Positions 17,884 to 35,967 of a stretch of 43,734 nucleotides of DNA are shown piece by piece. The DNA is taken from NCBI GenBank assembly GCA_023265195.1, contig JAHFUG010000008.1, positions 1 to 43,734 of the forward strand, read 5' to 3'. The number at the start of each line of letters is the position of its first letter. The first letter of the stretch is position 1. The notes beneath the pieces were generated by a model that was not told the DNA's origin, made no database searches, and saw only the letters and a program-made list of their open reading frames with translations. Both the position numbers and the translations under genes were made by a program. Source of the stretch: Blastocatellia bacterium (GTDB lineage Bacteria; Acidobacteriota; Blastocatellia; UBA7656).

Positions 17884-19359
17884 ATGCAGGTCGCCTCTCA
17901 GCCTTGGACTGGGCTGGCCGGTTTTCTTGACGCCCTCCTGGAAATCGCATTGCAGGAGACCGCTTCGGATACAGGCTGGGTCGTTGTAGATGCGCGGTCG
18001 GTTCAAGATGTTCCTGCCCTTTCGATCAAATCGATGGACGGAGGGCCGGTAGCCAGTGCATCGGATCTTCTGCGATACTGGCGGGCCGCGAAGAAGGCGG
18101 AAGCCGACAACGCGGCGCGTAACGACGGTCTCAAAAACGCGCCCCTCGGCGTTTCAACGGCGCCTCCACGCGCGATCGACGGCGGCTCATCTCTTTCCGC
18201 GCCGCTGCTGGAGGGAAAGAAGGTAGTCGGTCTGCTCCACGTCGAATCGCGGCGGCCGTCAAGATACCCTGAACAGAAACGAGACGAGATCGAGCGGCTG
18301 GCCGGCGCCGCGGTTCCCGCGTTGCATCGGGTGTTGCTGAAAGAGCAGATGCGGAAAGCGGGAGCGGACGTGGATCTTATCGGCGTCAGCCCCAAGTTTC
18401 TCGACCTTGAAAGACAGATCAGGCTCGTGGCCAGCTACGATTGGGGACCGGTGCTCATTACCGGAGAGCGTGGTAGCGGCAAGGAGCTGACGGCTTGGGC
18501 GTTGCATTGCTGGAGTTCTCGACACGGCTCCGCATTTGTGCCCGTGCTTCCGTCCGCCTTCGCCGAAGGGCTGGTTGCCGATGAGCTCTTCGGACATGAA
18601 CGACATGCCTTCACCGGAGCCGCTCAGGAGCGGCTCGGAAAATTCAAAGCCGCCGATGGAGGGACGATATTCTTTGACGAAGTAGCGGACATGCCCCATT
18701 CCGTCCAGTCGGGTCTGTTGCGCATCATCGAAAGAGGTGAGTTGCCTCGAATCGGCAGGGACGTCCAGACAAAGGTGAATGTCCGCATAGTGTCAGCCAC
18801 TAACTGCAATCTGCAGGAACTCATAGCTCAAGGCAAATTCCGGCAGGACCTCTATGACCGTTTGCGGGTCTTCGAGATTCACGTGCCCCCCTTGAGAGAA
18901 CGCCGCGACGATATTCCACTCCTGATCGACCACTTCATTCGCAAGCACTGCAAGACAATGCAACGCCATATCCGATCCGAAAACACCAGCCTTTGCTCCA
19001 CGTGCAGCGAGTTTACCTGTGTGAATTGCGTCGCCGCTCCCGTATATTCCGTCCTGTCCCAGCTTGACTGGCCGGGAAATGTGCGGGAACTCAAGAGCCT
19101 CGTCCTTCGATTGCTTGCCCACACGCCGGACGAGACTATCGAACCTCACCATCTTCCCGCAGAGATTCACGCGCAAAGGCAAAAACCGGGCGGCGCCAAC
19201 ACGGATTTGACACTCGACGGCGCGATTCGATCGCACATCGAGCGTGTGTTGGAGGCGGCCAACCACAATCAAAGCGAGGCCGCTCGACTACTAGGCACTC
19301 CGCTCTCCACGCTCAGAAGCAAGATGAAGAAGCTTGGACTCAAGGTGCGAGAGGCTTGA
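17884..19359 (+). CDS. sigma-54-dependent Fis-family transcriptional activator (GAF sensor, AAA+ domain, HTH_8)
   Basis: GERGSGKE (Walker A), ELFGHERHAFTGA (GAFTGA-loop variant), GGTIFFDEVADM (Walker B), WPGNVREL and C-terminal NQSEAARLLGTPLSTLRSKMKKLGL. The ORF track allows GTG 17782; ATG 17884 starts directly at the GAF-like region. The start is uncertain. Confidence 0.9.
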   Translation: MQVASQPWTGLAGFLDALLEIALQETASDTGWVVVDARSVQDVPALSIKSMDGGPVASASDLLRYWRAAKKAEADNAARNDGLKNAPLGVSTAPPRAIDGGSSLSAPLLEGKKVVGLLHVESRRPSRYPEQKRDEIERLAGAAVPALHRVLLKEQMRKAGADVDLIGVSPKFLDLERQIRLVASYDWGPVLITGERGSGKELTAWALHCWSSRHGSAFVPVLPSAFAEGLVADELFGHERHAFTGAAQERLGKFKAADGGTIFFDEVADMPHSVQSGLLRIIERGELPRIGRDVQTKVNVRIVSATNCNLQELIAQGKFRQDLYDRLRVFEIHVPPLRERRDDIPLLIDHFIRKHCKTMQRHIRSENTSLCSTCSEFTCVNCVAAPVYSVLSQLDWPGNVRELKSLVLRLLAHTPDETIEPHHLPAEIHAQRQKPGGANTDLTLDGAIRSHIERVLEAANHNQSEAARLLGTPLSTLRSKMKKLGLKVREA

Positions 19360-19588: not shown

Positions 19589-19605
19589 CCGGCGCGGGGA
19601 TTGCT
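19589..19605 (+). promoter_or_regulatory. candidate sigma-54 (-24/-12) promoter
   Basis: cCGGCGCGgggaTTGCT compared with the consensus YTGGCACGrNNNTTGCW. GG (19591-19592) and GC (19603-19604) have the canonical spacing, with two mismatches elsewhere. It lies 230 bp after the EBP stop and 65 nt before ABC-gene ATG 19670. Confidence 0.55.
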
Positions 19606-19669
19606 CTCCCTTCAAGCCGCACTCTCTTGAAGCAGGTTGGGAAAGGAAGCCGACCATCTGATCGGCTCC

Positions 19670-21520
19670 ATGGCTCTGAAGCCGGTCGAGGACACTTGCG
19701 TGGAAAAACAAGAGGTTTCTCTCCTGAACGTCTTCGGTCTGTTCGCTAGGTTCAGCGCGGACTTTCTCAGACCCCGCACTCAATCCTGCGTATGGGCGTC
19801 GGTTCTAATCTGTCTAAACACCGGGCTTCAACTGCCTCTGCCTCTGCTGGCCGCGCGATTCGTGGACAGCGTCGTTGGCGCGCGTGCCGGCGCTTCGGCC
19901 CTTTATTACGCGATCGCACTCATTTCAGTCACGGTGGTGGAATACGGTGTTTTGCTGGCCAACCAGCGGATTAATCTGGGATTGCGCGAGGAAGTTCTCT
20001 TAAACGTACAGGCCCGGCTGGCGCGGCATGTCTACAGGTTGCCGATCTCATACTTTCACGACAAGCAGTCATCGTACATTCAATCGCGGATCATGACGGA
20101 CGGCAGGTCGGTTGAGGGTTTCCTGCCGCAGCGCGTGCTCCCTCTCCTTCTCGACTTGCTTCTGTACGCCGCCGTGCTCGGCTGCATCTTCGCAATAAGT
20201 CCGATGATGGGTGGCATGGTTTTGGCCGGCACGGCGTCATTCGGATCCGTTTTCTATTTGACCAGTCACAGAGTCCGCCGTTTGAGAACGAAGCTTCAGG
20301 AAGCGGCGTCGCGTTCGTCGGCGATCGTCGCCGATGGCTTCGCGGGAATCCGCACGGTGAAGATGTACGGCTGCGAATCGCTCTTCAGCAGCAGGGTGGA
20401 GAGCCAACTCTCTCACCTTCGGGATACGCAGTTTCTAGCCAGCATGACCGAAGCCGGCTACACCGGGGCGGCGACTTTCGTTTCCGCCCTCACCGGAGCC
20501 TCGGTCATCACCTACGGAGCATACGCCATTATGCGGAACAGCATGACGGTTGGCCAGTTGTTCGGCGTCATAATGTTTCTGGGTCTGCTCTATCGTCCCA
20601 TCACTACGTTTGTCGCCGAGTACCTCCTGGTGCAGCAGGCGGCGGCGGGCGCGCAGAGGATATACGAACTCCTTGGCCTGCCGACCGAGACGGAAATCCG
20701 AGCGCGGAAGCTTGGCGGCGATGCTCGAAGCGGCGGTAACAGCATCGGATCGAGCCTTTCTTTCGAGGGCGTCAGTTTCAGCTACACCGGGGACTGTCCT
20801 GTCCTCGTGGATATCGACCTCAACATTCAACCCGGAGAGTGCTTCGCCCTCGTGGGCAAGAGCGGGGCCGGCAAGACAACGATGATCAATCTCGTACTCG
20901 GCCTGTACGAAGGCTATGAGGGCGGCATATTCCTTGACGGCGCCGAGATCGGAACGACGCCGTTGCCCGAGCTTAGGCGCCGCATCGGCGTCGTAGACCA
21001 GACGGCATTTCTCTTTACCGGAACTATTCTCGACAACATCCGCATCGCGGAGCCGGATGCGAGCTTTGAAGAAGTCGTAGCGGCGGCGAAGGCGGCGTTC
21101 GCGCACGACTTCGTAAACCGGCTGACCGACGGCTACAACACGCGGATTGGCGAGCGAGGCGCGGGATTGTCCGCGGGTCAGTGCCAGCGGATAGCGCTGG
21201 CGAGGCTCTTTTTGAAGAACCCTGGAATCGTCATCCTCGACGAAGCGATTTCGTCGGTTGATTCGGAATCGGAAGGCGTCATCCACGCCGCCCTTGCCTC
21301 GCTGATCAAGGGAAGGACGAGCATCATCGTCGCGCATCGGTTGTCGTCGCTGATGCTGGCGAATCGGGTCGCGGTGCTGCAAGCGGGGCGAATCGTCGAA
21401 CAGGGAACGCATGGCGAGCTGTTGCTCCATGGCAGCGCATACAAACGGCTCTTCCGGGAGCAATTCGCTCCGTTGCGCGAGCCGTCTGGAACCGACCGAG
21501 CGGCCCCTGTGTTTATGTAG
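19670..21520 (+). CDS. ABC exporter, fused permease/ATPase (MsbA-like half transporter) with no C39 peptidase domain
   Basis: N-terminal six-helix TMD. Walker A GKSGAGKTT, signature LSAGQCQR, Walker B IVILDEA and H-loop IIVAHR. The ORF-track TTG at 19637 is an alternative start. Confidence 0.9.
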   Translation: MALKPVEDTCVEKQEVSLLNVFGLFARFSADFLRPRTQSCVWASVLICLNTGLQLPLPLLAARFVDSVVGARAGASALYYAIALISVTVVEYGVLLANQRINLGLREEVLLNVQARLARHVYRLPISYFHDKQSSYIQSRIMTDGRSVEGFLPQRVLPLLLDLLLYAAVLGCIFAISPMMGGMVLAGTASFGSVFYLTSHRVRRLRTKLQEAASRSSAIVADGFAGIRTVKMYGCESLFSSRVESQLSHLRDTQFLASMTEAGYTGAATFVSALTGASVITYGAYAIMRNSMTVGQLFGVIMFLGLLYRPITTFVAEYLLVQQAAAGAQRIYELLGLPTETEIRARKLGGDARSGGNSIGSSLSFEGVSFSYTGDCPVLVDIDLNIQPGECFALVGKSGAGKTTMINLVLGLYEGYEGGIFLDGAEIGTTPLPELRRRIGVVDQTAFLFTGTILDNIRIAEPDASFEEVVAAAKAAFAHDFVNRLTDGYNTRIGERGAGLSAGQCQRIALARLFLKNPGIVILDEAISSVDSESEGVIHAALASLIKGRTSIIVAHRLSSLMLANRVAVLQAGRIVEQGTHGELLLHGSAYKRLFREQFAPLREPSGTDRAAPVFM

Positions 21521-21546: not shown

Positions 21547-23460
21547 ATGACTACAACAGTATCGAAAGAACGGCCGGACTCAACGATCCTCGACGGGACT
21601 TCGAATCGAGCGGGGCCGGTCAGAATCGCCCTGATCAACATGCCGTTTGCCGCCGCCAGGCGTCCGTCGATCCAGTGCGGACTGCTCAAGGCGATTTTGA
21701 ATCGAGCCGGGCATCAGACCGACGTCTTTTACTTCAACCTTCGGCTGGCCGCCGCTCTCGGCCACGAACTCTATTCCAAACTCGCCGACAATCAGTGGCT
21801 CAGCTTTTTGGGGGATTGGCTGTTCGGCGCGGCCGCGTTCGGCCCCCGCCAAGACGAGCTTCTCTATCTTCAGACCTCGGGCGCCGCCGGTCACCAGGCT
21901 CACGTTGGTTTGAACGAAGCCGAGTTGATCGAGCTCCGCAATCGGACCTTGCCGGCTCTGCTGGACGTGTGGATTGGCGAAACCGACTGGAGCGTCTACA
22001 CCGCCGCCGGCTTTTCGTGCACCTTCGATCAGAATGCCGCCTCGTTTGCGTTCGCCCGTCTGTTGAAGGAGCGCTTTCCCGGCCTTATCACCGTCTTTGG
22101 CGGGGCCAACTTCGATGACGACAGCGCCCCGGAGTACCTCCGCAAGCTCGATTGGATCGACTACATCGTGGTCGGCGAGGGGGATCAAGCCCTCCCCACC
22201 CTCGTCCAACGCCTTCAAGAAGGTCTATCCGGCGCTGGCGTCGCGGGTGTCGTCGCCCGCTCGAACGGACACGTCTGTTGTACGCCTGCCAAAATCGTTC
22301 CCGATTTGGATTCTCTCCCCGATCCCGACTATGACGACTACTTCGCGGCCTTGAACTCCCTCGGACAGCGCTCCGTGCTCGGCGCGGCGTCCCCTCAACT
22401 TCCCTTCCAGGGCGCTCGCGGATGTTGGTGGGGCCAAAAACACCACTGCACCTTTTGTGGCTTGAATGGGAGCGACATCGCGTTTCGCTCGAGAAACCCT
22501 CGCTTGGTCTACGACGAGCTACGGCGCCAATCGGCTCGCTACCGCACCCTTAAGTTCATCGCTACCGACAACATCCTCGACATGAAGTACATCGACACCC
22601 TCTTTACGTGGATGCGCGACAGCCGGCATGACTACAACCTCTTTTATGAAACAAAGGCCAACCTCACCCGCGCCCAGATCCGCACGCTGGTCCAGGGAGG
22701 CGCCAAAGCGATTCAAGCCGGCGTCGAAAGCCTGAACACCCATGTCCTGCGCCTGATGAACAAAGGGACGACTATGTTGCTCAACTTACGTCTCCTCAAG
22801 TGGGCTCGCTACTACGGCCTCCACGTCGCCTGGAACCTCCTCACCGGCTTCCCGGGTGAAACCCTTGACGACTATCAAGCGCAGGCGAGGCTGATACCGC
22901 TGATCGCTCACCTCGAGCCCCCCGGGATCGCCGACAGCATCATGCTCGAGAAGCATGGGCCTTACGTGATTAGCCGCGATCCTTTCTACCGGAACCTTCG
23001 TCCGGCAAGCGGATACTCGTTCATCTTTCAAGAGAGTATCGATCTCGACAAGATCGCGAAGTACTTTGACGCTGAACGGATGGCGGGCGACTGGCGCCCC
23101 GCCGCCTTCGAAGAGCTGAACAGGGGGGTCGATCGGTGGAACGATTTGTGGCGCGGCGACAAGCGGCCAGCCCTGGTCTGCCAACGATCCGCGGATTGGA
23201 TGCGCATCGAGGATCGCCGCGATCCGGGCGAGCCCAGGACACACTGGCTCACGGCCCCATTCGCGTCGGCTTATGGCGCGTGTTTGGAAACAGCCCAAAA
23301 CGCGGCCGGTGTCGTGCAACGTAGCCGGGAATCCGGCGAAGGCTATAGCTCGGAAAGTGATGCGCGCGGAATGCTCGGCGAAATGACTGAAAAGGGTTTG
23401 ATGGTTGAAGAGAACGGCAATTACCTGAGCCTCGCTATCCCGGTCAATCCGGGCTGGTGA
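21547..23460 (+). CDS. B12-binding-domain radical SAM protein, RiPP-maturase-like (copy A)
   Basis: N-terminal Rossmann-like IALINMPFAA..PSIQCGLLKAILNRAGHQTDVFYFNL. Cluster motif GCWWGQKHHCTFCGLNG (C-x7-C-x2-C, 22423-22458). AGGAG RBS before ATG 21547. I recall this pattern from the TIGR03975-type bacteriocin/RiPP maturation radical SAM family; this was not verified. Confidence 0.88.
   Translation: MTTTVSKERPDSTILDGTSNRAGPVRIALINMPFAAARRPSIQCGLLKAILNRAGHQTDVFYFNLRLAAALGHELYSKLADNQWLSFLGDWLFGAAAFGPRQDELLYLQTSGAAGHQAHVGLNEAELIELRNRTLPALLDVWIGETDWSVYTAAGFSCTFDQNAASFAFARLLKERFPGLITVFGGANFDDDSAPEYLRKLDWIDYIVVGEGDQALPTLVQRLQEGLSGAGVAGVVARSNGHVCCTPAKIVPDLDSLPDPDYDDYFAALNSLGQRSVLGAASPQLPFQGARGCWWGQKHHCTFCGLNGSDIAFRSRNPRLVYDELRRQSARYRTLKFIATDNILDMKYIDTLFTWMRDSRHDYNLFYETKANLTRAQIRTLVQGGAKAIQAGVESLNTHVLRLMNKGTTMLLNLRLLKWARYYGLHVAWNLLTGFPGETLDDYQAQARLIPLIAHLEPPGIADSIMLEKHGPYVISRDPFYRNLRPASGYSFIFQESIDLDKIAKYFDAERMAGDWRPAAFEELNRGVDRWNDLWRGDKRPALVCQRSADWMRIEDRRDPGEPRTHWLTAPFASAYGACLETAQNAAGVVQRSRESGEGYSSESDARGMLGEMTEKGLMVEENGNYLSLAIPVNPGW
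21664..22884 (+). repeat. 1,221-bp direct repeat, copy 1 (nucleotide-identical to 24924-26144)
   Basis: Line-by-line comparison at an offset of 3,260 bp found no mismatch. Identity decays abruptly at both ends. Antisense ORFs in the ORF track are also duplicated exactly. Confidence 0.95.
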
Positions 23461-23505
23461 GTATCAGGGCAAGCTGTTCCAACTCCGTCCTGGGAGGTGC
23501 GCCGT

Positions 23506-24780
23506 ATGTCCTCGAGTCTGCGTGATCTGATCCAAATCTCCACGCGAGAAGCTCCCGCCGCTTCTACCGTAGATATGCCGGAATTCGCCGCTGACGAAAA
23601 AGCGGCTCTTGAAGAACTGCTGGCGGCGCCGTATCCGGAGCCGGGCTTGCCGCCAAGCGTGGCGTTTATCATCCGGACTACGCGCCTGTGCAATCTGCGT
23701 TGTTCCTACTGCTATGTGTGTCCGGACGAATCGGCTCAGACGATGTCGTTTCCCCTGGTGGTGAGGACCATCCGGGATGCGTTGAGGGACCGGCGTCTTC
23801 GCGATGTCACTTTTTACTGGTTTGGCGGCGAGCCCACATTGCTGCCGGTGACGTTTTACGAGAAGGCGCTGTGGCTTCAACGAGCACTGCGCCGGAACGG
23901 TCAGGTAATTCACAACGACCTCATCACCAATGGCACTCGAGTTACGGACGAATGGATCAGACTGTGGCGTGACCACGGTTTCCGGTTACGCGTCAGCCTG
24001 GATGGTCCGCCGGAATCCCACGATGCACACCGGAAATTCGCTGGTGGGAAGCCTACCTCCGAGCTGGTCGTTCGCGGCATTCGGGCTCTAGTCGCCGCGG
24101 GGCTGGGGCCCAGCGTCGACCTTGTCGTGACCCCCGCGGTTCGGCGGATTGGCGCGGCGCGGCTGCTGGAGTACGTGCTGGAACTGGGAGTTAAGGAATT
24201 GCGCGTAAGGTATATGTTGGCTTCGCCCGAGGACGGCCTCACACCGGACGGAGAACGGCCACTTCCGTTCTCCGAATATGTCGGCTATCTTCGCGACTTA
24301 TTCCGAATTTGGTGGCCAAGAGCAGCCGGCAAGCTGGCCATACAGGAACTAACCGATCTCGTGGAGACCCTCCGCTCCGGACCCACCGGTCTGTGCGTTC
24401 ATTCCGGCCAGTGCTTTGGAAGCGTGTACACGATTGAACCGGACGGCGGCGTTTTTACGTGCGATGACTTCTTCGGTTACGACTCGCACCGGTTCGGAAA
24501 CCTCTTTCAAATGACGCTTTCTGATTGCGTTCGCGGCTCCCATCTCCGTCAACTACGTCAGAGGCAACAAATCGAGAGCGCAGACTACGAAGAATGCCGT
24601 TGGTTTTCAGTTTGCCATGGCGGCTGTCCCCGTTGGCGGCTGTCACCGGCGGTCTCCGGCGCGTCGGACGGTCACTGCTGCGGTATGAAGCGCTTGATTT
24701 CAGATATCGCGTCCGCGCTCGGATTAGCCGGACCGGCCCGAAGACCGGTCCGGCAATGCAAGACACAGGAGACGACATGA
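23506..24780 (+). CDS. radical SAM / SPASM-domain peptide-modifying enzyme (anSME-like), copy 1
   Basis: CNLRCSYC (C-x3-C-x2-C, 23689-23712). C-terminal Cys-rich SPASM-like region CVHSGQC...FTCDD...ECRWFSVCHGGCP. GGGAGG lies 8 nt before ATG 23506. The stop overlaps the next gene's start (ATGA). Confidence 0.88.
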   Translation: MSSSLRDLIQISTREAPAASTVDMPEFAADEKAALEELLAAPYPEPGLPPSVAFIIRTTRLCNLRCSYCYVCPDESAQTMSFPLVVRTIRDALRDRRLRDVTFYWFGGEPTLLPVTFYEKALWLQRALRRNGQVIHNDLITNGTRVTDEWIRLWRDHGFRLRVSLDGPPESHDAHRKFAGGKPTSELVVRGIRALVAAGLGPSVDLVVTPAVRRIGAARLLEYVLELGVKELRVRYMLASPEDGLTPDGERPLPFSEYVGYLRDLFRIWWPRAAGKLAIQELTDLVETLRSGPTGLCVHSGQCFGSVYTIEPDGGVFTCDDFFGYDSHRFGNLFQMTLSDCVRGSHLRQLRQRQQIESADYEECRWFSVCHGGCPRWRLSPAVSGASDGHCCGMKRLISDIASALGLAGPARRPVRQCKTQETT

Positions 24781-26720
24781 CATCCATCGGACACCAACTG
24801 GTCGGGCTAGAAGGGCGGCTCACCGCTCCACCTGATCCTTGCGCCGTCACAGCTTCATTCGACGCAAAGGTCAGCCAGGCCCGATTGGCCTTGATAAACA
24901 TGCCGTTTGCCGCCACGACGCGCCCGTCGATCCAGTGCGGACTGCTCAAGGCGATTTTGAATCGAGCCGGGCATCAGACCGACGTCTTTTACTTCAACCT
25001 TCGGCTGGCCGCCGCTCTCGGCCACGAACTCTATTCCAAACTCGCCGACAATCAGTGGCTCAGCTTTTTGGGGGATTGGCTGTTCGGCGCGGCCGCGTTC
25101 GGCCCCCGCCAAGACGAGCTTCTCTATCTTCAGACCTCGGGCGCCGCCGGTCACCAGGCTCACGTTGGTTTGAACGAAGCCGAGTTGATCGAGCTCCGCA
25201 ATCGGACCTTGCCGGCTCTGCTGGACGTGTGGATTGGCGAAACCGACTGGAGCGTCTACACCGCCGCCGGCTTTTCGTGCACCTTCGATCAGAATGCCGC
25301 CTCGTTTGCGTTCGCCCGTCTGTTGAAGGAGCGCTTTCCCGGCCTTATCACCGTCTTTGGCGGGGCCAACTTCGATGACGACAGCGCCCCGGAGTACCTC
25401 CGCAAGCTCGATTGGATCGACTACATCGTGGTCGGCGAGGGGGATCAAGCCCTCCCCACCCTCGTCCAACGCCTTCAAGAAGGTCTATCCGGCGCTGGCG
25501 TCGCGGGTGTCGTCGCCCGCTCGAACGGACACGTCTGTTGTACGCCTGCCAAAATCGTTCCCGATTTGGATTCTCTCCCCGATCCCGACTATGACGACTA
25601 CTTCGCGGCCTTGAACTCCCTCGGACAGCGCTCCGTGCTCGGCGCGGCGTCCCCTCAACTTCCCTTCCAGGGCGCTCGCGGATGTTGGTGGGGCCAAAAA
25701 CACCACTGCACCTTTTGTGGCTTGAATGGGAGCGACATCGCGTTTCGCTCGAGAAACCCTCGCTTGGTCTACGACGAGCTACGGCGCCAATCGGCTCGCT
25801 ACCGCACCCTTAAGTTCATCGCTACCGACAACATCCTCGACATGAAGTACATCGACACCCTCTTTACGTGGATGCGCGACAGCCGGCATGACTACAACCT
25901 CTTTTATGAAACAAAGGCCAACCTCACCCGCGCCCAGATCCGCACGCTGGTCCAGGGAGGCGCCAAAGCGATTCAAGCCGGCGTCGAAAGCCTGAACACC
26001 CATGTCCTGCGCCTGATGAACAAAGGGACGACTATGTTGCTCAACTTACGTCTCCTCAAGTGGGCTCGCTACTACGGCCTCCACGTCGCCTGGAACCTCC
26101 TCACCGGCTTCCCGGGTGAAACCCTTGACGACTATCAAGCGCAGACCGCTCTAGTGCCGGCCATCACGCATCTCGTGCCGCCCAACAGCGTGGACGGAAT
26201 TCTCTTACAGAAACACAGCCCGTACGCGGAGGCTTCGAGTTATTGTGGCGGCGAGTTGCGCCCCGCCGCCGGATACGAGTTCGTTTATCCTCCACGCCTG
26301 GAGCTTGAAGAGATCGCATTTTACTACGATGGGGGCTCGCCGCTTACGGCCGAGAGCGACATCGCCCTCTATGATCTGAAGCAAGCCGTTGAAAAGTGGC
26401 GGAGCCTGTGGAAGGAGGGGACGCGCCCGGTTCTGGTCCATCAGCGGGCCGCGGACTGGATTCGGTTCGAGGACCGGCGTGATCCGGAACGTCCCAAGAC
26501 CACTTGGCTGTCTGCGCCTTATGCGCTGGCGTATGAATGCTGTTCCGACACCGCGCAGTCACCCGCGGCAACAGCCAGCCGGATGCGCGAAACCTCGGGC
26601 AGGCCGACTGGGGAAGATGAAGTCGCTCGGATGCTTCTCGAGATGAAGGATTCGGGCCTGATGGCGGAAGAGAATGGGCACTTTCTGAGCCTCGCTCTTC
26701 CAGCCAATGCAGGTTGGTAG
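24777..26720 (+). CDS. B12-binding-domain radical SAM protein, RiPP-maturase-like (copy B)
   Basis: The core is identical to copy A. The N-terminus (MTSIGHQLVGLEGR...) and the last ~190 aa are distinct. ATG 24777 overlaps the TGA of the SPASM gene. The ORF-track start at 24525 would overlap that gene by 250 nt. Confidence 0.88.
   Translation: MTSIGHQLVGLEGRLTAPPDPCAVTASFDAKVSQARLALINMPFAATTRPSIQCGLLKAILNRAGHQTDVFYFNLRLAAALGHELYSKLADNQWLSFLGDWLFGAAAFGPRQDELLYLQTSGAAGHQAHVGLNEAELIELRNRTLPALLDVWIGETDWSVYTAAGFSCTFDQNAASFAFARLLKERFPGLITVFGGANFDDDSAPEYLRKLDWIDYIVVGEGDQALPTLVQRLQEGLSGAGVAGVVARSNGHVCCTPAKIVPDLDSLPDPDYDDYFAALNSLGQRSVLGAASPQLPFQGARGCWWGQKHHCTFCGLNGSDIAFRSRNPRLVYDELRRQSARYRTLKFIATDNILDMKYIDTLFTWMRDSRHDYNLFYETKANLTRAQIRTLVQGGAKAIQAGVESLNTHVLRLMNKGTTMLLNLRLLKWARYYGLHVAWNLLTGFPGETLDDYQAQTALVPAITHLVPPNSVDGILLQKHSPYAEASSYCGGELRPAAGYEFVYPPRLELEEIAFYYDGGSPLTAESDIALYDLKQAVEKWRSLWKEGTRPVLVHQRAADWIRFEDRRDPERPKTTWLSAPYALAYECCSDTAQSPAATASRMRETSGRPTGEDEVARMLLEMKDSGLMAEENGHFLSLALPANAGW
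24924..26144 (+). repeat. 1,221-bp direct repeat, copy 2 (nucleotide-identical to 21664-22884)
   Basis: See copy 1. Confidence 0.95.
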
Positions 26721-26742: not shown

Positions 26743-26954
26743 TGGTGATGGCTGTTTGATCAGCTCAAGGATTCCTCCATGGGAGGGCCGCCGCGCCTTG
26801 CGCCGTGTTGGCAGGAATGAAACGCAAAGTCGCAAACCGCCAAATCAAGACGCCGCGCAAGTAGTGTTGTGGCCCTTTCATTTCCTGGGTTCCCCTTTAA
26901 CGGGGACCTGAACAACAAGCAATTCACTAAACCTCTCTAAAAGGAGACACCGCA

Positions 26955-27104
26955 ATGAATACCGAATACGCAGAAGACCAATTGGAAGATTGCACTTTCG
27001 GTAGCCACCCCAGCGTTCAGCTTGGGGCGGACGCCGGACTCAACGACAGCGCTGATGACCTCGACAGCGTCGAGTGGACCTCCGGCGTCAAGTGGTCGAA
27101 GTAA
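26955..27104 (+). CDS. candidate 49-aa precursor peptide, absent from the ORF track because it is under 60 aa
   Basis: AAGGAG (26941-26946) with an 8-nt spacer before the ATG. An in-frame stop lies upstream at 26928-26930. Translation: MNTEYAEDQLEDCTFGSHPSVQLGADAGLNDSADDLDSVEWTSGVKWSK. Bracketed by hairpins at 26721-26742 and 27113-27153. Confidence 0.45.
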   Translation: MNTEYAEDQLEDCTFGSHPSVQLGADAGLNDSADDLDSVEWTSGVKWSK

Positions 27105-27112
27105 CCAAGAGA

Positions 27113-27153: not shown

Positions 27154-27255
27154 CATCGTCGTTATCGCTCACGTGCGGGCGCGTGGTCCCAGAAAACAAT
27201 GGGTGGAGTTGATATATAATCGCGTTTCTCCCGGCAGCAACACCTTGGAGGCGAT

Positions 27256-29724
27256 ATGACTGATTCCTTGAAGGAGTGGCTCTCCGGATTCCGGCAACTC
27301 AGCCGCAATCCGGGCTTTTCAGCGAGTGTCGTTTTCACCCTTGCACTCGCAATGGGCGTCACTTCCGCGATGATGAGTGTTGGAGACGCGCTGTTGTTGA
27401 AACCTCTTCCCTATCACAAGCCCGGCGAGTTGTTCGACGTCTCGGAGACCTCGGCGCGGTCAAGCGGCGTGACTTCGCTGCCGAACGCACTCGATTGGAA
27501 AGAGCAAAGCCGGACGCTGAAGCCGGTTGCATACTACATGGAAACGGCGCTTCCCCTCGATTTGGGATCAGGGACAACGATTGTGCCCGTGGTCAAGGGA
27601 AGCTATGAGATGTTTGAAACTCTGGGCGTCACGCCGGCCGTGGGCCGCGTCTTTGATCCGCGGGACGAGCGTGAACCCGAAAAGAACGTGGCTGTTCTCA
27701 GCGCCGCGTTTTGGAGGGAAACGTATGGAGAAGATCGCTCCGTCATCGGAAAGACCATAAGGTTGAACCATTCCTCATACACGATCATCGGAATAACGCC
27801 GGCGGAGTTCGCTTTTCCGATCGGCTATCCCACTGCTATTTGGACGCCGTTGGCGCCCGAGCGGGATTTAAAGGAAAACCGCGGCGCAAGGAATCTGTCG
27901 GTGATCGGACGCAGTCATCCCGGAGAAACCCTGAAATCCGTCGAAGCGGAATTCGCAGTGCTTTCGCGGCGATTGAGCGAGCAGTATCCCGACGCGCAAC
28001 AGGGGTGGACGACTCGAGTGAGGAGCTATGACGACTTGGCCAGAGGCCACCTGCGGCCAATGGTGTTGGCGCTGGTAGGAGCCCTGGGGGTGGTCTTCTT
28101 GATTGCATGCGCGAACGTGACGGGTTTGCTCCTGGCGCGTGTCTCGGCGCGCCGCCGCGAATTCACGATCAAGGCCGCCCTTGGCGCGTCAATGTTGCGG
28201 ATCGTGCGGCAAATCCTGATTGAATGCGTCCTGCTATCGCTGATCGGAGCCGGGTTTGGCGCTCTGTTCACCTTGATCATCCTTACGATCTTCCAGCCGC
28301 ATCTCGGAATTCACGTTCGAGAGGCGGGCGAAGTGGCGATGAACTGGCGCGTCGGGCTGTTCGTTCTCGTTCAGGCAATAGCCTGCGGCTCTCTCACCGC
28401 AATCCTCCCCGCCCTGGCTCTGGCCCGCGAGACGTCTCAGTCAGGGTTGCGCGAGGAGGCGTTGACGGTGCTGTCCAGCCGGCGTCAGAACCGGCTGATG
28501 AAAGTCCTGGCCTCCAGCCAAGTGGCGCTGACGTTTGTTCTGCTGGTGGCCGCGGGCCTGATGCTTCGCACCTTGGACCGGCTCCAGCACACGAATACCG
28601 GGTTTGAGCCGGACAACGTGCTGACGGCCGAGCTCTGGCCTTCGCTGGAGCCGGCGGCCGGGGACGCACTCTCGGAAACTTCCGGCCGCGGGGATCTCGT
28701 GCGTGACGCTTACCTTCCGCTGGTCGATCATCTTGGGTCGTTGCCCGAGGTGCAAGCCGCCGGCTTGATCTCCGTGCTGCCGCTCTCGGGATTTTCAGGA
28801 ACCCGGTTCTTTGTCGCGGGCCGGCCTAAACCGAGTTCCGCCGAGACTCCGCGCTGCGAGATCCGCGCGGTCAGCGAGGGATATTTTCGCGCCCTCGGAA
28901 TTCAACTTCTCGCGGGCCGCTTGCCCGGCGCGCAGGACGGCGGCCGAACCTCACCGGTGGCTGTGATCAACGACGTACTGGCTCGGAAGTACTTTCCCGA
29001 CGACGATGCGCTCGGAAAACAGGTCAAACTCCGTTTCGAAGGCCCAAACAAGGAGTCCATCACTATCGTCGGCGTCTTTCGCGCAACCGTCCAGCGCAGT
29101 CTCTCCGACCCGCCGGAGCCGGAGTTGGACTTGCCCTATTCACAACTCACGCCTGACCACCTCCTCTACCCTTATCTCGGCGCGGTGAAAACCAACGTAG
29201 TGCTTCGAACCGCCGTGCCGCCCGAGAGAGTGGCGCCTTCGCTGCGCCGCGCCGTTTACAAAGAGGCGCCGGACCTGGCAATCGACAATGTTCGCTCCTT
29301 GGCCGATCATATGAGGCGTACGCTTACGGGCCGCCAGTTCTCGTTGTTCCTAATCGCCACTTTCGCCCTGCTCGCATTAGCGATGGCTTTGGCGGGGCTT
29401 CACGCGGTGATAGCCCTCTGGGTGAGCCAGCGGACTCGCGAGTTGGGACTGCGCATGGCGCTTGGAGCGCCGCGGTCAAACGTCGTCGGTCTCGTCGTGC
29501 GACAGACCGGCTTTGTCGTCATCGCCGGGTTGATAGCCGGCTGGGGGCTTTTCGCGCCGCTGAGTCATTTGGTAGGGGATTTCCTTCAGGGAGTCGCCGT
29601 CACCGACACACTCACGATCGCGGCCGTCTCCTTGAGCATTTTATTGATAGGGCTGCTGGCGGGCTTCCGTCCGGCGTGGCGCGCAGCCTCCATTTTGCCA
29701 AATGACGTACTGCGCTCCGAATGA
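27256..29724 (+). CDS. ADOP-family duplicated FtsX/MacB-type ABC permease
   Basis: The N-terminus LSRNPGFSASVVFTLALAMGVTSAMMSVGDALLLKPLPYHKPGELF is typical of the acidobacterial duplicated orphan permease family. Two FtsX-like 4-TM modules. GGAGG lies before ATG 27256. A perfect TATAAT sits at 27215-27220. Confidence 0.88.
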   Translation: MTDSLKEWLSGFRQLSRNPGFSASVVFTLALAMGVTSAMMSVGDALLLKPLPYHKPGELFDVSETSARSSGVTSLPNALDWKEQSRTLKPVAYYMETALPLDLGSGTTIVPVVKGSYEMFETLGVTPAVGRVFDPRDEREPEKNVAVLSAAFWRETYGEDRSVIGKTIRLNHSSYTIIGITPAEFAFPIGYPTAIWTPLAPERDLKENRGARNLSVIGRSHPGETLKSVEAEFAVLSRRLSEQYPDAQQGWTTRVRSYDDLARGHLRPMVLALVGALGVVFLIACANVTGLLLARVSARRREFTIKAALGASMLRIVRQILIECVLLSLIGAGFGALFTLIILTIFQPHLGIHVREAGEVAMNWRVGLFVLVQAIACGSLTAILPALALARETSQSGLREEALTVLSSRRQNRLMKVLASSQVALTFVLLVAAGLMLRTLDRLQHTNTGFEPDNVLTAELWPSLEPAAGDALSETSGRGDLVRDAYLPLVDHLGSLPEVQAAGLISVLPLSGFSGTRFFVAGRPKPSSAETPRCEIRAVSEGYFRALGIQLLAGRLPGAQDGGRTSPVAVINDVLARKYFPDDDALGKQVKLRFEGPNKESITIVGVFRATVQRSLSDPPEPELDLPYSQLTPDHLLYPYLGAVKTNVVLRTAVPPERVAPSLRRAVYKEAPDLAIDNVRSLADHMRRTLTGRQFSLFLIATFALLALAMALAGLHAVIALWVSQRTRELGLRMALGAPRSNVVGLVVRQTGFVVIAGLIAGWGLFAPLSHLVGDFLQGVAVTDTLTIAAVSLSILLIGLLAGFRPAWRAASILPNDVLRSE

Positions 29725-29730: not shown

Positions 29731-31332
29731 ATGACACCGCGCTGGCGCCATGACTTTGACGGTATGTCGCGCCAGACTTCTTGCTTGAGGTCAACAACCT
29801 CGGAAGGCAGGCGGACGATGAGTCTCGAGTCTGTTTTGGAAACGACCCTGGAACGGACTGTCAGTGAGAACGAACTCGACGGCCTGATCCTCAAGGCAAG
29901 CCGCGCGAGGTCCAAGAGCGCTCCATACGGCGCCGGCCAGGGGCAGGCCAAGAAGCCGTCATGGCATGCCCGAAAGCCTTTGCGGCTTCTGAAGATGGAG
30001 CTTGGAAACACCCTCGTGCTCCACCCGCAAACCGGCGCCTGGACGATCGTCGCGCCCGAGGGTCTCGGCCAAGTACAAGCTATCCTTCGGGCGTCGGATG
30101 AGGGGCTGCTCGATGACATTCCGGACGTGGAAAACCGGCCTCTCGTAAAGTCGCTGGTGTCGTGCGGTCTTCTCGGGAGGGCTCCGATGCCGGCATTCGG
30201 CGTCAGTGACGTCGCAAAACAGCGGCCGCTAAGGTTGATGATTCTGAAAATCGTGGGCTACTGCAATCTCGCCTGCCGCTATTGCTACGACTATGATGAC
30301 GCAACCTACCACCGCACGCTGGATGTTCAACTTGGGAAAAGAGCGATTGAAGAAGCTCTCGCCTGCACCACACTCAGCCTATCGATCCTGTTCCATGGCG
30401 GCGAGCCGCTGCTGGCGTTCGACGAGATCCGTGTGTTGACGGCGTTCGCCCGGCAAGCCGCTCGGAGAGCCGGTAAGGACGTGAACTTCTCGGTGCAAAC
30501 GAACGGGACTTGTTTTACCGGCGAGATCGTTGATTTCCTTGTAACCGAAGAGTTCGCCATCGGGATTTCGCTGGATGGTCCCTCGCATCTCAATGACCTT
30601 GTCCGAATCGATAGACGCGGACGAGGTTGTCATGCCGCGGTGGAAGCATCTCTCGAGCGATATCCGGTCCTTCGAAGGACGGCCGGTGTCCTGACAACGG
30701 TGACGAGCGTAAACGCACGCGAGCTGCGCCGCGTCGCGGAATACGTGCGCGACCTCGGCATTCGCAGCTTCAACGCCGCGCTTTTCTTGCGGGAAGGGCG
30801 AGCCGCCGGGTCTTCGGACGGACTCTCGCCGTCGCCTGAAGATCTGATCGCCGGATATCTCGACTTGCTGGCGGGCGTCGAGAGCGGCGCGTTCGACGAC
30901 ATTCAAATCTGGCCGGTCCTGTACTATCTGCGGAACGTTCTGACGGACGCCCGCCCGAATGCGTGTCTCCGCAACGGCGGATGCGGCGCCGCCCGCGAAC
31001 TGGTGTCGGTCACCGTCAACGGGACCGTAGAGTCGTGCGACTGCGTCCGGCTCCCTGATCTGAGCTTGGGATCGATGGCGGATTCGACTATCGGAGAGGC
31101 ATTGCATGGGCAGGTGGCCGGCCTGATTAAATCCCGTTCCGAATGCTCGCTGCCTCGGTGTTCGGCGTGTCTCTATCGAGCGTTCTGTGGAGGCACTTGC
31201 TTTGCGAGGGCAGGCGGTTTGGACAAGGTCAACGAAAGCGAGTGCCGCTTGTCGAGGGCGGTCTTCGGCGAGATTTTTAAGAGTCTCAACCGTTCCAGCC
31301 GCCTTGAGCGGTATGCGCAATTGCATTCCTGA
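29731..31332 (+). CDS. radical SAM / SPASM-domain enzyme with a roughly 160-aa N-terminal extension, copy 2
   Basis: GYCNLACRYCYDY (C-x3-C-x2-C). C-terminal SPASM-like cysteines CLRNGGC..ESCDC..CSLPRCSACLYRAFCGGTCFA. The extension contains LVLHPQTGAWTIVAPEGLGQVQAILRASDEG, which is PqqD/RRE-like. Alternative starts at 29764 and 29818. Confidence 0.86.
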   Translation: MTPRWRHDFDGMSRQTSCLRSTTSEGRRTMSLESVLETTLERTVSENELDGLILKASRARSKSAPYGAGQGQAKKPSWHARKPLRLLKMELGNTLVLHPQTGAWTIVAPEGLGQVQAILRASDEGLLDDIPDVENRPLVKSLVSCGLLGRAPMPAFGVSDVAKQRPLRLMILKIVGYCNLACRYCYDYDDATYHRTLDVQLGKRAIEEALACTTLSLSILFHGGEPLLAFDEIRVLTAFARQAARRAGKDVNFSVQTNGTCFTGEIVDFLVTEEFAIGISLDGPSHLNDLVRIDRRGRGCHAAVEASLERYPVLRRTAGVLTTVTSVNARELRRVAEYVRDLGIRSFNAALFLREGRAAGSSDGLSPSPEDLIAGYLDLLAGVESGAFDDIQIWPVLYYLRNVLTDARPNACLRNGGCGAARELVSVTVNGTVESCDCVRLPDLSLGSMADSTIGEALHGQVAGLIKSRSECSLPRCSACLYRAFCGGTCFARAGGLDKVNESECRLSRAVFGEIFKSLNRSSRLERYAQLHS

Positions 31333-31364: not shown

Positions 31365-32798
31365 ATGAACTTCGCCGAATCTATCTTTGCAAGGAAGTTT
31401 CTGATCGCCGAATCCGACCTCGAGCGCTACCTGGCGGCCGCGTTGTCCACCGCCGGTGACTATGCCGACGTGTATATTGAACACGTAACATCCACGGCTC
31501 TCTCCATTGATGGTTCGATCGTCAAGACCGCCACGCAAGGAATGTCATTGGGAGCCGGCGTTCGCGTCGTCTCGGGGGAGCGCACGGGCTACGCCCATTC
31601 CGACAGCCTCGCCCCCGAAAGCGTTCTCAAGGCCGCTCGGATTGCGGCCCGCATAGCTCACGGACCGTCGCTGGTCACTAAGACCGGGTTTGAGGAAGTC
31701 CAGAAACCTGATCTCTACTCCATGCTCGCCGCACCCGCCGAATCCGCGCTAGACAAGCGGGTGGAACTAATAAAGCGCGCCGATGCCGCGGCGCGCGCCT
31801 CGGACCCACGCGTAACCGACGTGCACGTCGTCTACGCCGACAACTTACGCCAGGTTCTAGTCGCCACTTCAGAGGGCCGGCTCAGTTGTGACCGGCAACC
31901 CCTCACCCGGATCAGCGTAACCGCGCTGGCCCGCGGGATGGATGGCGCCGTGGGGGAGGGCCGCGCGGGTGGTGGTGGCAGAGTTGCGCTCGACTTCTTC
32001 CAGACTGACAAGACGCCGGAGTACTTCGGCGGCGAGGCCGCCCGCCAGGCCCTTGTGCAGATCAGCGCGGGCGAGGCGCCGGTTGGAGAAATGACCGTGG
32101 TCCTGGGATCGGGGTGGCCCGGCATCCTCATCCACGAAGCCGTCGGTCATGGTCTCGAAGCCGACTTCAACCGCAAAACGCTTTCCGCTTTCACGGGCCG
32201 CATCGGCGAGCGAGTCGCCAGCCCTTTGTGCACGATTGTTGACGACGGGACGATACCGAATGGCCGGGGTTCACTGAATGTGGACGACGAAGGGACGCCG
32301 ACCCGGCGAAACGTCCTGATCGAGAATGGGATTTTATGCGGCTACCTGCAGGACAAACTTTCCGGCGCCCTGATGCGCGCGCGGTTGACCGGCAACGGAC
32401 GGCGGGAGAACTATCAATTCGCCCCAGTGCCGCGCATGACAAACACGTTCTTGCTGGCTGGCGGCAGCGATCCCGATGAGATCGTACGCGGGGTTGGGCG
32501 CGGCCTCTATTGTGCTCGGTTCGGCGGGGGCCAGGTCGACATCACTAACGGCAACTTTGCTTTTACGGCCACCGAATGTTACCTCATCGAGGCTGGCAGG
32601 TTAACCCGCCCGGTTCGGTGGGCGACATTGATAGGGAACGGGCCGGAGTCTCTAAAACACGTCAGCATGGTCGGTCACGACCTCCGGCTGGACGAGGGCG
32701 TTGGCGTCTGCCGCAAGGACGGCCAAAACATCCCGATCGGGGTTGGCATGCCGACAACCAGGATCGACAACGTGACGGTGGGAGGCGTCGCGCAATGA
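31365..32798 (+). CDS. tldD: metalloprotease TldD
   Basis: HEAVGHGLEADF (HExxxH, 32133-32150), GSLNVDDEGTP and the typical length of 477 aa. Confidence 0.92.
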   Translation: MNFAESIFARKFLIAESDLERYLAAALSTAGDYADVYIEHVTSTALSIDGSIVKTATQGMSLGAGVRVVSGERTGYAHSDSLAPESVLKAARIAARIAHGPSLVTKTGFEEVQKPDLYSMLAAPAESALDKRVELIKRADAAARASDPRVTDVHVVYADNLRQVLVATSEGRLSCDRQPLTRISVTALARGMDGAVGEGRAGGGGRVALDFFQTDKTPEYFGGEAARQALVQISAGEAPVGEMTVVLGSGWPGILIHEAVGHGLEADFNRKTLSAFTGRIGERVASPLCTIVDDGTIPNGRGSLNVDDEGTPTRRNVLIENGILCGYLQDKLSGALMRARLTGNGRRENYQFAPVPRMTNTFLLAGGSDPDEIVRGVGRGLYCARFGGGQVDITNGNFAFTATECYLIEAGRLTRPVRWATLIGNGPESLKHVSMVGHDLRLDEGVGVCRKDGQNIPIGVGMPTTRIDNVTVGGVAQ

Positions 32799-34198
32799 GC
32801 GAGTTGGAACGACTCGCACGACAGGGCGTCCTGCTTGCTCTCGATCAGGGCGCCACCAACGCCGAGTGCACGATAGCCGAAGGCGAGCAACTTTCCTTGA
32901 GGGTTCGCATGCACGCGCTCGAGCAGATTGAGGAGGCCATCCGTCGAGGCGCCGGCATCCGCGTGCTGAAGGGGAACCGCGCCGGGTCGGCGACGACAAA
33001 CGACATGTCGGCGGAAGGCGTCAGCCGGATGGTAGGCTGTGCGCTCGATCTCGCGCGGATTGCCTCCGAAGACCCCTTCGCCGGCCTTCCCGGGCCAGGT
33101 GACCTCGCCCGGTGCTCGGATGACCTTGGGATTTACTCGAAAGACGTCACCGAACTGAACACCGAAGAGAGAGTCGCTCTAGCCCGGGCCGCGGAAGAAG
33201 CCGCTCTCCAACTCGACCCGCGCATGGTCGGCTCCGAAGGCGCCACCTTCGGCGCCTACGTCGGCCATCATGTCTTCGCGAATTCTCTCGAGTTCTGCCG
33301 ATCGTATCGCACCACCAATTGTTCCCTCTCGGTCTCCGCGGTCGCTCGGCAGAATGACGGTATGCAGCGCGACTACTACTGTTCAAGCAGCCGCTCGGCC
33401 GCCGGCCTGGAGTCACCCGAGGACGTCGGCCGCGCCGCGGCCGGCCGCGCTTTGCGGCGCCTAAATCCGCGCCGCATTGTAACTCAAAAGGCGCCGGTCA
33501 TCTTCGAGCCAAGGGCCGCCGGCAGTCTGGTTGGTCACTTGTTCAACGCGGTCAACGGCTCAAACATCTGCAGGGGCATGTCTTTCCTCGGCGGAAGACT
33601 CGGCAAGAAGATCGCAAGCGAGCTCCTGACGCTGATCGACGACAGCCAGATCCCGGGGCTGCTTGGCACCAGCCCGTTCGACGATGAAGGTGTTCGCGGT
33701 GGCCGCACGATCGTCATCGAAAATGGCGTCCTCAACAGCTATCTGCTTAACACCTATTCCGCCAGGAGGCTCGGCCTGAAGACAACGGGCAACGCCAAGC
33801 GCGGGCTTGCCGGAAGCGCCTGTGTGGGTCATGGCAATCTGTTCATAACCGGGCCCCGGCCGCCCGCCGGCCATGATTCATCCGGCATCGCCGGCTTCAG
33901 ACAGGCCGCGACGGACGAATTCCCGCCATCCTTGCCTCCCGGTCTCCCTGATTCCCTCCTTGTAACGGGGCTGGTCGGCCGTGGAGTCAACACTACAACT
34001 GGAGACTACTCCCAGGGAGCGGTCGGCTTTTGGGTTGAGAATGCTGAGATAGCTTATCCCGTTTCGGACATAGTCATCTCGGGGAAGCTGCAGCAGATGC
34101 TGATGGACATCGAGTGGATCGGCTCCGACCTTGCATTCCGCTCTTCTCTTGCTTCACCAACGCTCCTAGTGGGGCGGATGATGGTGGCGGGGCGCTGA
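32795..34198 (+). CDS. pmbA: PmbA/TldE metalloprotease partner
   Basis: ATG 32795 overlaps the tldD TGA (ATGA). TGDYSQGAVGFWVENAEIAYPV and SPFDDEGV are typical of PmbA. A roughly 20-aa Pro-rich insertion precedes LLVTGLVG. The ORF-track start at 32576 overlaps tldD and is not credible. Confidence 0.9.
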   Translation: MSELERLARQGVLLALDQGATNAECTIAEGEQLSLRVRMHALEQIEEAIRRGAGIRVLKGNRAGSATTNDMSAEGVSRMVGCALDLARIASEDPFAGLPGPGDLARCSDDLGIYSKDVTELNTEERVALARAAEEAALQLDPRMVGSEGATFGAYVGHHVFANSLEFCRSYRTTNCSLSVSAVARQNDGMQRDYYCSSSRSAAGLESPEDVGRAAAGRALRRLNPRRIVTQKAPVIFEPRAAGSLVGHLFNAVNGSNICRGMSFLGGRLGKKIASELLTLIDDSQIPGLLGTSPFDDEGVRGGRTIVIENGVLNSYLLNTYSARRLGLKTTGNAKRGLAGSACVGHGNLFITGPRPPAGHDSSGIAGFRQAATDEFPPSLPPGLPDSLLVTGLVGRGVNTTTGDYSQGAVGFWVENAEIAYPVSDIVISGKLQQMLMDIEWIGSDLAFRSSLASPTLLVGRMMVAGR

Positions 34199-35942: not shown

Positions 35943-35967
35943 ATTCGCTGTTTTATTCCCCGTGTTT

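Follow-up and report, generated by a model that had tools for sequence, protein, structure and literature searches.

The stretch of DNA analysed here, 43,734 nucleotides from a Blastocatellia bacterium (assembly GCA_023265195.1, contig JAHFUG010000008.1) and hereafter called the window, carries between 17.8 and 34.2 kb a cluster of genes for radical S-adenosylmethionine (rSAM) enzymes. In the middle of this cluster lies a short open reading frame (ORF) at 26955-27104 on the forward strand, which probably encodes the precursor of a RiPP (ribosomally synthesised and post-translationally modified peptide) matured by these enzymes. Judging from sequence comparison, we put the probability of this reading at about 80%. 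The ORF runs from an ATG at 26955 to a stop codon at 27102-27104 and specifies a product of 49 amino acids (aa), MNTEYAEDQLEDCTFGSHPSVQLGADAGLNDSADDLDSVEWTSGVKWSK. An earlier note on this DNA, made from the letters alone, had singled it out as the best precursor candidate, and the reading signals that it listed were all verified: a Shine-Dalgarno (SD) sequence, AAGGAG, lies 8 nt before the ATG, and an in-frame TAA at 26928, 9 codons upstream and with no alternative start codon in between, excludes a longer form. The acidic character that the note ascribed to the product also holds, although the exact count is 11 acidic residues (D/E) instead of about 12, within positions 4-40 instead of 4-39. 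Lys and Arg are absent from residues 1-40 and the only basic residues of the peptide are H18, K46 and K49. The leader contains no double-glycine (GG) site, and C13, the sole Cys of the peptide, is not conserved among orthologues.

A homologue search among 5.8 billion proteins returned two orthologue clusters (P0002 and P0003), both of the same 49-aa length and showing 73% and 71% aa identity to the peptide. These orthologues occupy the same position in syntenic metagenome loci, and the homologous small ORF on which the earlier note had made its proposal depend is thus found where it was expected. At the nucleotide level the ORF is 75-79% identical to its orthologues with no indel at all, while its flanks are gap-rich (40% identity in the upstream intergenic region, which is effectively unalignable, and 54-60% downstream). 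The SD, the start codon and the stop codon are all kept. Substitutions respect the reading frame: 21 of the 32 nucleotide differences between the window and the orthologous locus L001 fall on third codon positions, Nei-Gojobori dN/dS values for the three pairs are 0.18, 0.14 and 0.15 (dS 0.34-1.24), and the synonymous excess is highly significant (Fisher p = 3e-5 and 2e-6). The identity of the peptide to its orthologues (73%) also lies within the range of the neighbouring proteins (63-83%). In addition, identical copies of the peptide are present on contigs of three further samples, these contigs being 99.3-99.96% identical to the window.

Conservation is not uniform along the peptide. The invariant blocks are MNT, FGSHPSVQL, DAGL, D37-S-V-E-W-T-S-G-V-K-W47 and K49, residue 48 being either S or T. 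The C-terminal motif, whose conservation the earlier note had proposed to check, is therefore unchanged except at residue 48, and the whole tail DSVEWTSGVKW[S/T]K is kept in all three lineages although dS is 0.8-1.2.

An ORF of this size could in principle be a chance ORF, its conservation reflecting an RNA element or some other constraint at the DNA level. ORFs of such length are indeed common by chance at 58% GC (195 ORFs of at least 30 aa per 18 kb, so that a 49-codon ORF alone is within chance expectation), and a strong RNA stem-loop adjoins this one. It is conservation and purifying selection that raise the ORF above chance: neither the third-position excess nor a dN/dS of 0.14-0.18, nor the lack of indels over 150 nt between two gap-rich flanks, is what an RNA or DNA element would leave. 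The translation signals are conserved as well, an Rfam scan of positions 26400-27500 gave chance-level matches only, and gene callers predicted the ORF independently in all assemblies. We consider a chance ORF extremely improbable; the 49-codon ORF is a genuine conserved gene.

The family is small and matches no described one. Scans of the peptide against Pfam (E <= 10) and NCBIfam (E <= 0.01) gave no match, which agrees with the earlier note in placing it outside the NHLP and Nif11 families. A profile built from the peptide alignment and run against 1.84 billion representative proteins recovered its own family and one unrelated repeat protein only, and a DNA-pattern scan for EWTSGVKW in metagenome contigs gave five chance matches and no genuine family member. 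Within the window, we found neither a second copy of the peptide nor any other precursor-like ORF.

The genes around the peptide form a cluster of about 16.5 kb, whose content was established with Pfam and NCBIfam and whose order is the same in the orthologous loci L001 and L002 (Table 1).

Table 1. Features of the peptide gene and its cluster (positions in the window).
Feature	Position	Strand	Remarks
Sigma-54-dependent activator (GAF, AAA+, HTH_8)	17782..19359	+	actual start probably downstream of 17782; syntenic in L001/L002
Sigma-54-type -24/-12 element CGGCGCGGGGATTGCT	19590..19605	+	position upstream of ABC gene, and conservation
ABC exporter (transmembrane domain and ATPase), no C39 peptidase domain	19637..21520	+	HlyB match from model position 123
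B12-rSAM copy 1	21547..23460	+	TIGR03975 (RiPP C-methyltransferase subfamily), 577 bits vs cutoff 281.85
rSAM/SPASM enzyme, extended DarE/DarW/DynA clade, no RRE domain	23497..24780	+	DarW 295, DarE 228, DynA 166 bits
B12-rSAM copy 2	24777..26720	+	TIGR03975, 575 bits vs 281.85; ATG overlaps stop of preceding gene
Shine-Dalgarno AAGGAG	26941..26946	+	AAAGGAG unchanged in all orthologous loci; remaining upstream intergenic region ~40% identical
Precursor leader (putative), acidic, residues 1-40	26955..27074	+	inferred boundary to core; invariant blocks MNT, FGSHPSVQL, DAGL, DSVE
Putative core W41-T-S-G-V-K-W47-S-K49 and stop codon	27075..27104	+	two Trp-X-X motifs: W-T-S, W-S-K
GC-rich 13-bp stem-loop	27113..27153	+	begins 9 nt past stop codon; U-tract absent; structure conserved
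ADOP-family duplicated MacB/FtsX-type permease	27256..29724	+	TIGR03434, 722 bits vs cutoff 622; syntenic
RRE-rSAM-SPASM peptide maturase, unnamed family (by fold)	29731..31332	+	gene start called 29818; Pfam Radical_SAM, SPASM
TldD metalloprotease	31365..32798	+	Pfam, NCBIfam
TldE/PmbA partner	32795..34198	+	start overlaps TldD stop

The ABC exporter is 83% identical to its L001 orthologue. The permease probably serves in export or immunity; it belongs to a family named for Acidobacteria and so suggests an acidobacterial host. The ATGA start/stop overlaps at 24777-24780 (DarE/DarW-clade rSAM and B12-rSAM copy 2) and 32795-32798 (TldD and TldE) suggest translational coupling. The genes that flank the cluster are unrelated to it; upstream they encode a T2SSE/PilT-like secretion ATPase, RecX and a Ser/Thr kinase, and downstream SelA. 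Selenoprotein synthesis by the organism is probable, given this selenocysteine synthase gene, selA (36114-37751, reverse strand), just beyond the cluster. Immediately past TldE, a 468-aa ORF on the reverse strand (34575-35981) matches no Pfam family and is present in contigs L099 and L100 too. Finally, a 61-aa ORF at 27074-27259 on the forward strand (55 aa as called in L099 and L100) overlaps the peptide gene at its 3' end, the hairpin, and the permease gene at its start; it is probably spurious, as it is uncalled in L001 and L002, where the intergenic region is shorter.

The stem-loop that follows the peptide gene has its 13-bp stem within 27-nt arms that are 78% complementary, and it is more stable than shuffled sequence (z = -3.2). 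At the corresponding place, L001 (z = -4.35) and L004 (z = -2.5) have equivalent stems of 13-15 bp that differ in sequence. A GC hairpin had been noted here before with an 11-bp stem; the hairpin is real, its stem being longer than stated. It was not scored as an intrinsic terminator and, as it lacks a U-tract, is not a canonical one; it is probably an attenuator or a structure stabilising the mRNA. By contrast, the 9-bp hairpin that the same note placed before the ORF could not be reproduced: a search of positions 26840-26954 with a 6-nt seed gave no inverted repeat, local pairing there reaching 5 bp at best (UCCCC/GGGGA), and the region upstream of the ORF folds no better than shuffles (z = -0.47) and is unconserved in orthologous loci. 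Nor is the separate attenuated transcript supported that the note took to fit this arrangement: upstream of the ORF there is no promoter-like site, and the only conserved promoter-like element precedes the ABC gene. Further upstream, a sigma-54-type -24/-12 element precedes the ABC gene (CGGCGCGGGGATTGCT in the window, TGGAGCGGAGATTGCT at 5737-5752 in L001). This element is the sole conserved island of that intergenic region between the window and L001, and it adjoins the gene for the GAF-domain sigma-54 activator. As the number of matches to such elements across the window is not above chance, its support comes from position and conservation.

Among the maturation enzymes, the one encoded at 29731-31332 has an N-terminal extension of ~140-170 aa and falls below every NCBIfam cutoff (best model PapB, 147 bits). 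In its AlphaFold2 model (pLDDT 83), the N-terminal part folds into three strands and helices (beta3/alpha) resembling a RiPP recognition element (RRE), the strands falling within residues 49-78 and the helices, which come next, within 80-115 (pLDDT ~90). The top Foldseek match in the PDB is the RRE-containing sactisynthase CteB (5wgg), over the full length (E = 2.6e-25), followed by anSME and by a complex of the cyclophane synthase ChlB and its leader. A Pfam scan of the enzyme gave no PqqD match, so that the RRE is called from structure. By its predicted fold, the enzyme has the RRE, rSAM core and SPASM domain of an RRE-dependent rSAM/SPASM maturase.

Close relatives of this enzyme are two only (71% identity), both in lineages that bear the peptide. 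Beyond them, the enzyme has a large family of relatives at 30-50% identity. A single-sequence scan of GTDB genomes found no close relative, while an alignment-based scan placed members of this family in Planctomycetaceae, Sphingomonas, Labrenzia, Deinococcaceae, Thermoanaerobaculia and Mucilaginibacter, among other taxa. In the loci of these relatives, an ORF of 66-190 aa directly precedes the rSAM gene, and in the four loci having gene calls (L005-L008) a Lip_A_acyltrans-like gene lies 3' of it. Of 28 ORFs directly upstream of such relatives, 26 carry a W-x-[K/R] motif near the C-terminus, against 6.4 +/- 2.2 (maximum 14 in 2,000 trials) for random anchors in the same 28 loci. Beside the nearest enzymes, the precursors read AWTKTIWKRAC*, TWTRTVWRRGG, AWTKTVWRRSG, GWIKTIWRRFC* and PWLRSVWRRKG; remoter ones carry WDK[L/A/F]C*, WSKTTCC*, WSKATC (of which one precursor has two copies), WTRACC or WSRAC. 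The tail of the window peptide, EWTSGVKWSK*, has the same two-Trp layout as the nearest of these precursors, is one residue longer and ends in W-S-K. More broadly, the loci L005-L028, L031, L032, L036, L038, L042, L048 and L082 form a widespread group that combines an RRE-rSAM-SPASM enzyme of ~470 aa with a W-x-[K/R] precursor, the motif often being followed by x-x-C; the precursors of this group share a leader (h-h-x-h-P-D...).

The second SPASM enzyme (23497-24780) belongs to the extended DarE/DarW clade, and it too is below all NCBIfam cutoffs. Relatives at 41-44% identity score higher with the same models (DarW 433-461 bits, DarE 365-391 bits). They directly follow a B12-rSAM gene and precede ~100-aa precursors ending in ...KIWAFRW*, ...KIWTFRW* and ...TIWTFKFG*, a pairing with IW[T/A]F[R/K][W/F] cores seen in three loci, two of which are closely related. 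Such tails are similar to WT(F/Y)RF, a core of daropeptides (PMC9055067). The leader/core junction of these precursors, D-V-S-G-[Y/F], is loosely similar to the D-S-V-E-W of the peptide. The modules span 6109-9675 in L091, 5091-8737 in L092 and 4340-9101 in L093. L091 contains two additional precursor-like ORFs with the common D-V-S-G-[Y/F] junction. In L093 there are a fusion of a B12-rSAM to DUF5825, a RamC_N-Pkinase-LANC_like gene and a peptide of 92 aa that is rich in Cys and has a weak NHLP-like leader. Among relatives of solved structure, the anaerobic sulfatase maturase is closest to the 23497-24780 enzyme (129 bits), and JGI names an orthologue accordingly; a literature search for DarW yielded no relevant paper. 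When the putative precursors found beside relatives of either SPASM enzyme were scanned with Pfam and NCBIfam, no family matched.

The two B12-rSAM genes that surround the DarE/DarW-clade gene share an exact direct repeat of 1,221 nt (21664-22884 and 24924-26144). Their central ~400 codons are identical, while the C-terminal ~200 aa are 25-53% identical and the first ~40 aa differ, a pattern resembling the outcome of recent gene conversion or of domain swapping. C-methylation is the default chemistry for TIGR03975, and an identical core with divergent termini suggests the same chemistry at two sites. L001 and L002 seemingly lack the DarE/DarW-clade gene and one B12-rSAM. However, the single B12 gene of L001 is chimeric, with a copy-1-type N-terminus and a copy-2-type C-terminus, and both L089 (a 2.3-kb contig from the same sample as L001) and L090 (from a Logan run) carry the missing module, arranged as copy-1 C-terminus, DarE/DarW-clade rSAM (73% identical to the window enzyme) and copy-2 N-terminus. 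Moreover, contigs assembled from short reads of the same species as the window break off at the repeat, which is where L099-L101 begin. Because of the chimeric gene, the L089/L090 module and the breaks at the repeat, we reject the reading that the DarE/DarW-clade gene is an insertion specific to the window. By these sequence comparisons, the apparent loss in L001 and L002 is an assembly artefact or a recombination product and not another architecture, and the full gene set is very probably common to the three lineages.

Given that the gene is real, its product might still be a small acidic operon protein that is not a substrate, such as an immunity, chaperone or regulatory peptide, the true precursor being encoded elsewhere. 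Purifying selection indeed shows only that the product matters, a permease gene lies directly 3' of the peptide gene, and the usual partners of TIGR03975 enzymes are precursors of the NHLP or Nif11 type, to neither of which this peptide belongs. Yet the 16.5-35 kb region of the window contains no other conserved small ORF and no NHLP/Nif11-like gene, and an RRE-containing maturase needs a leader-peptide partner. The peptide itself shows the usual leader-plus-core layout, and its most conserved part is the C-terminal Trp/Lys motif, which matches the precursors of both SPASM enzymes' relatives. We judge the non-substrate explanation improbable. The central proposal of the earlier note, that the ORF encodes the precursor peptide, is upheld by orthology, synteny, purifying selection and the conserved tail.

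The pathway that we infer from this precursor would begin with transcription from the sigma-54 promoter upstream of the ABC gene, controlled by the adjacent GAF-domain activator; the conserved stem-loop past the peptide gene may attenuate read-through or stabilise the precursor message. The acidic leader (residues ~1-40) would be bound by the N-terminal RRE of the 29731-31332 enzyme, with the invariant FGSHPSVQL as the likely recognition element, and the C-terminal nonapeptide would constitute the core. There, the two rSAM/SPASM enzymes would form side-chain macrocycles at both Trp-X-X motifs: for the RRE enzyme the most likely site is W47-S-K49, as its family is marked by W-x-K/R, and for the DarE/DarW-clade enzyme W41-T-S43, as its relatives are marked by W-T-x. 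Residue 43 is Ser and not aromatic, so that by the correlation that Woodard et al. report (PMC10705402) a C-C link would be favoured over an ether, with Ser oxidation as an alternative. The B12-rSAM paralogues would add C-methyl groups, or make some other B12-rSAM modification, at two sites. The TldD/TldE pair would then trim the leader back to the first macrocycle, being the obvious leader-removing protease since the exporter has no C39 domain and the leader no GG site; such a role has a precedent in microcin B17. Finally, the ABC exporter and the ADOP permease would export a product of ~9-10 residues.

We give the chemistry itself, namely two Trp-to-C-beta macrocycles plus C-methylation, slightly less than an even chance. 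The peptide may instead be a precursor on which other reactions take place: Ser43 or Ser48 may be converted to formylglycine or a beta-oxo residue, the B12-rSAMs may cross-link or only methylate, and the RRE-rSAM may do something other than W-x-K linking. This is consistent with the sulfatase-maturase affinity of the 23497-24780 enzyme and with the fact that the best NCBIfam matches of the 29731-31332 enzyme, PapB and QhpD, are thioether formers. Furthermore, DarE is reported to yield beta-oxo residues and formylglycine on variant substrates (PMC10705402), and with PbsB there is a B12-rSAM that forms a biaryl C-C link (PMC12257519). However, a thioether is impossible in a core without Cys, the sole Cys of the peptide being the unconserved C13; the invariants common to the related precursor families are a Trp and a Lys/Arg two positions on, which is the Omega-X-X cross-link signature; and the B12-rSAMs match TIGR03975 far above its cutoff. 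We therefore regard a precursor with such other chemistry as unlikely, if still worth serious consideration, and retain the Trp macrocycles with C-methylation as the working scheme.

Several observations weigh against this scheme or against parts of the precursor reading. Firstly, the peptide family comprises three lineages only, so that the conservation statistics amount to two independent comparisons. Secondly, neither a sigma-54 nor a sigma-70 promoter was found immediately upstream of the peptide gene. Thirdly, alignment of the peptide family to the W-x-[K/R] precursors with hhalign was not significant (E = 0.33), and these precursors differ in that their leader is another, longer one, that a Cys usually comes past the motif, and that they are accompanied by an acyltransferase, which this cluster lacks; as far as sequence allows a judgement, the peptide is linked to them by a short motif and not by demonstrable homology. 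In addition, the nearest relatives of the RRE-rSAM serve W-T-K-T-V-W-R-R precursors with a single rSAM enzyme, which makes the proposed division of labour between two enzymes a guess. As both SPASM enzymes are below every curated NCBIfam cutoff, their chemistry is not transferable with confidence, and PbsB illustrates that B12-rSAMs can cross-link rather than methylate (PMC12257519).

If the proposed scheme is correct, the product would be a C-methylated scaffold of darobactin or xenorceptide type, and perhaps a new bioactive compound, of the kind that targets the outer membrane. Trp-cross-linked rSAM peptides (darobactin, dynobactin and xenorceptides) are among the few new scaffolds active on Gram-negative bacteria. 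To our knowledge, all characterised ones come from Proteobacteria, and we know of almost no characterised RiPPs from Acidobacteriota. The locus thus offers a concrete, testable set of substrate and enzymes from a different, largely uncultured phylum, and knowing which gene encodes the precursor is a prerequisite for heterologous production. Its combination of a DarE-clade rSAM, an RRE-containing SPASM rSAM, two B12-rSAMs and TldD/E is one that we did not encounter in the papers that we consulted. Two further groups of loci can be mined on the same grounds: those in which an RRE-rSAM and an acyltransferase accompany W-x-[K/R]-x-x-C precursors, and those in which a DarE/DarW-clade rSAM and a B12-rSAM accompany IW[T/A]F[R/K][W/F] precursors.

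How far does the system resemble known ones? With darobactin and the daropeptides it shares a short precursor (49-58 aa) whose core is at or near the C-terminus, and the W-S-K and W-T-x sub-motifs in that core. W-S-K is the motif of the darobactin Trp3-Ser4-Lys5 C-C cross-link, and WT(F/Y)RF is a daropeptide core (cluster IV) (PMC9055067). DarW, DarE and DynA, the last from dynobactin, are the best NCBIfam models of the 23497-24780 enzyme, and a MacB/FtsX-type permease adjoins the peptide gene as in darobactin clusters. However, the two Trp motifs are separated here (W-x5-W) and fused in darobactin (W-N-W), the C-terminal residue is Lys instead of the aromatic Phe, the cluster adds an RRE-rSAM/SPASM, two B12-rSAMs and TldD/E, and the host is probably an acidobacterium instead of an enterobacterium. 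The cutoff of 650 bits for DarE (NF038005) and DarW (NF041300) is not reached, with 228 and 295 bits respectively, and the core W-T-S-G-V-K-W-S-K conforms neither to W-N-W-x-[K/R]-x-F nor to W-T-[F/Y]-R-F. Likewise, a DarBCD set is lacking, as the ADOP permease scores 32.5 bits against the DarB cutoff of 700 and no DarC- or DarD-like gene was seen in the cluster with Pfam.

The triceptides and xenorceptides provide the other close parallel, with two Omega-X-X units in a short C-terminal core (W41-T-S and W47-S-K in the peptide) and with rSAM/SPASM maturases; the top structural matches include ChlB. Patterns of the form Omega-x4-Omega-x2 characterise xenorceptide cores (bioRxiv 10.1101/2024.12.16.628070); this pattern, that of type D, is found in the nearest related precursors (WTKTVWRR), while the peptide itself is Omega-x5-Omega-x2. 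Unlike in triceptides, neither SPASM enzyme reaches a named cyclophane-synthase model (XyeB, YhhB, GrrM/OscB, FxsB, AmcB), the Gly-Gly leader site and the C39/HlyD export set are absent, and B12-rSAMs and TldD/E are additional. The earlier note had thought, as a speculation, of streptide (StrA/StrB, SuiB). The likeness holds for an RRE-bearing SPASM rSAM acting, presumably, on a short peptide with Trp and Lys, but streptide is not the closest analogue, darobactin and triceptides being closer: its link joins Lys2 and Trp6 in K-x3-W, whereas the tail here has no K-x3-W and places Lys at Trp +2, SuiB is a poorer structural match (TM ~0.5) than CteB, anSME or ChlB, and the taxonomic and regulatory contexts differ. 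No StrB-type model is among the best 25 of 59 and the best 25 of 66 families matched by the two SPASM enzymes.

Proteusins and other NHLP/Nif11 RiPPs have in common with this cluster the strong TIGR03975 matches of both B12-rSAMs (575-577 bits), but the precursor here is much shorter, matches neither the TIGR03793 nor the TIGR03798 leader, and is accompanied by no epimerase and no nitrile-hydratase-like leader partner. RiPPs processed by TldD/TldE (microcin B17 and the biphenomycin-like pbs/bpm systems) likewise encode a TldD-type metalloprotease; in pbs clusters a B12-rSAM is paired with such a protease, PbsP, which frees the RiPP core (PMC12257519). Our cluster differs from these systems in encoding TldD together with TldE, in having neither an MNIO nor an arginase or heterocyclase, and in its core sequence. 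On sequence grounds, the peptide appears to resemble a darobactin or triceptide precursor, yet it shows the full set of features of no named family. We tentatively suggest, as a possibility somewhat weaker than the chemistry proposed above, that it is the first representative of a new family of RiPPs, probably of Acidobacteriota, in which a product of ~9 residues would carry two separate Trp macrocycles made by two rSAM/SPASM enzymes, be C-methylated by two B12-rSAMs and be released by TldD/E.

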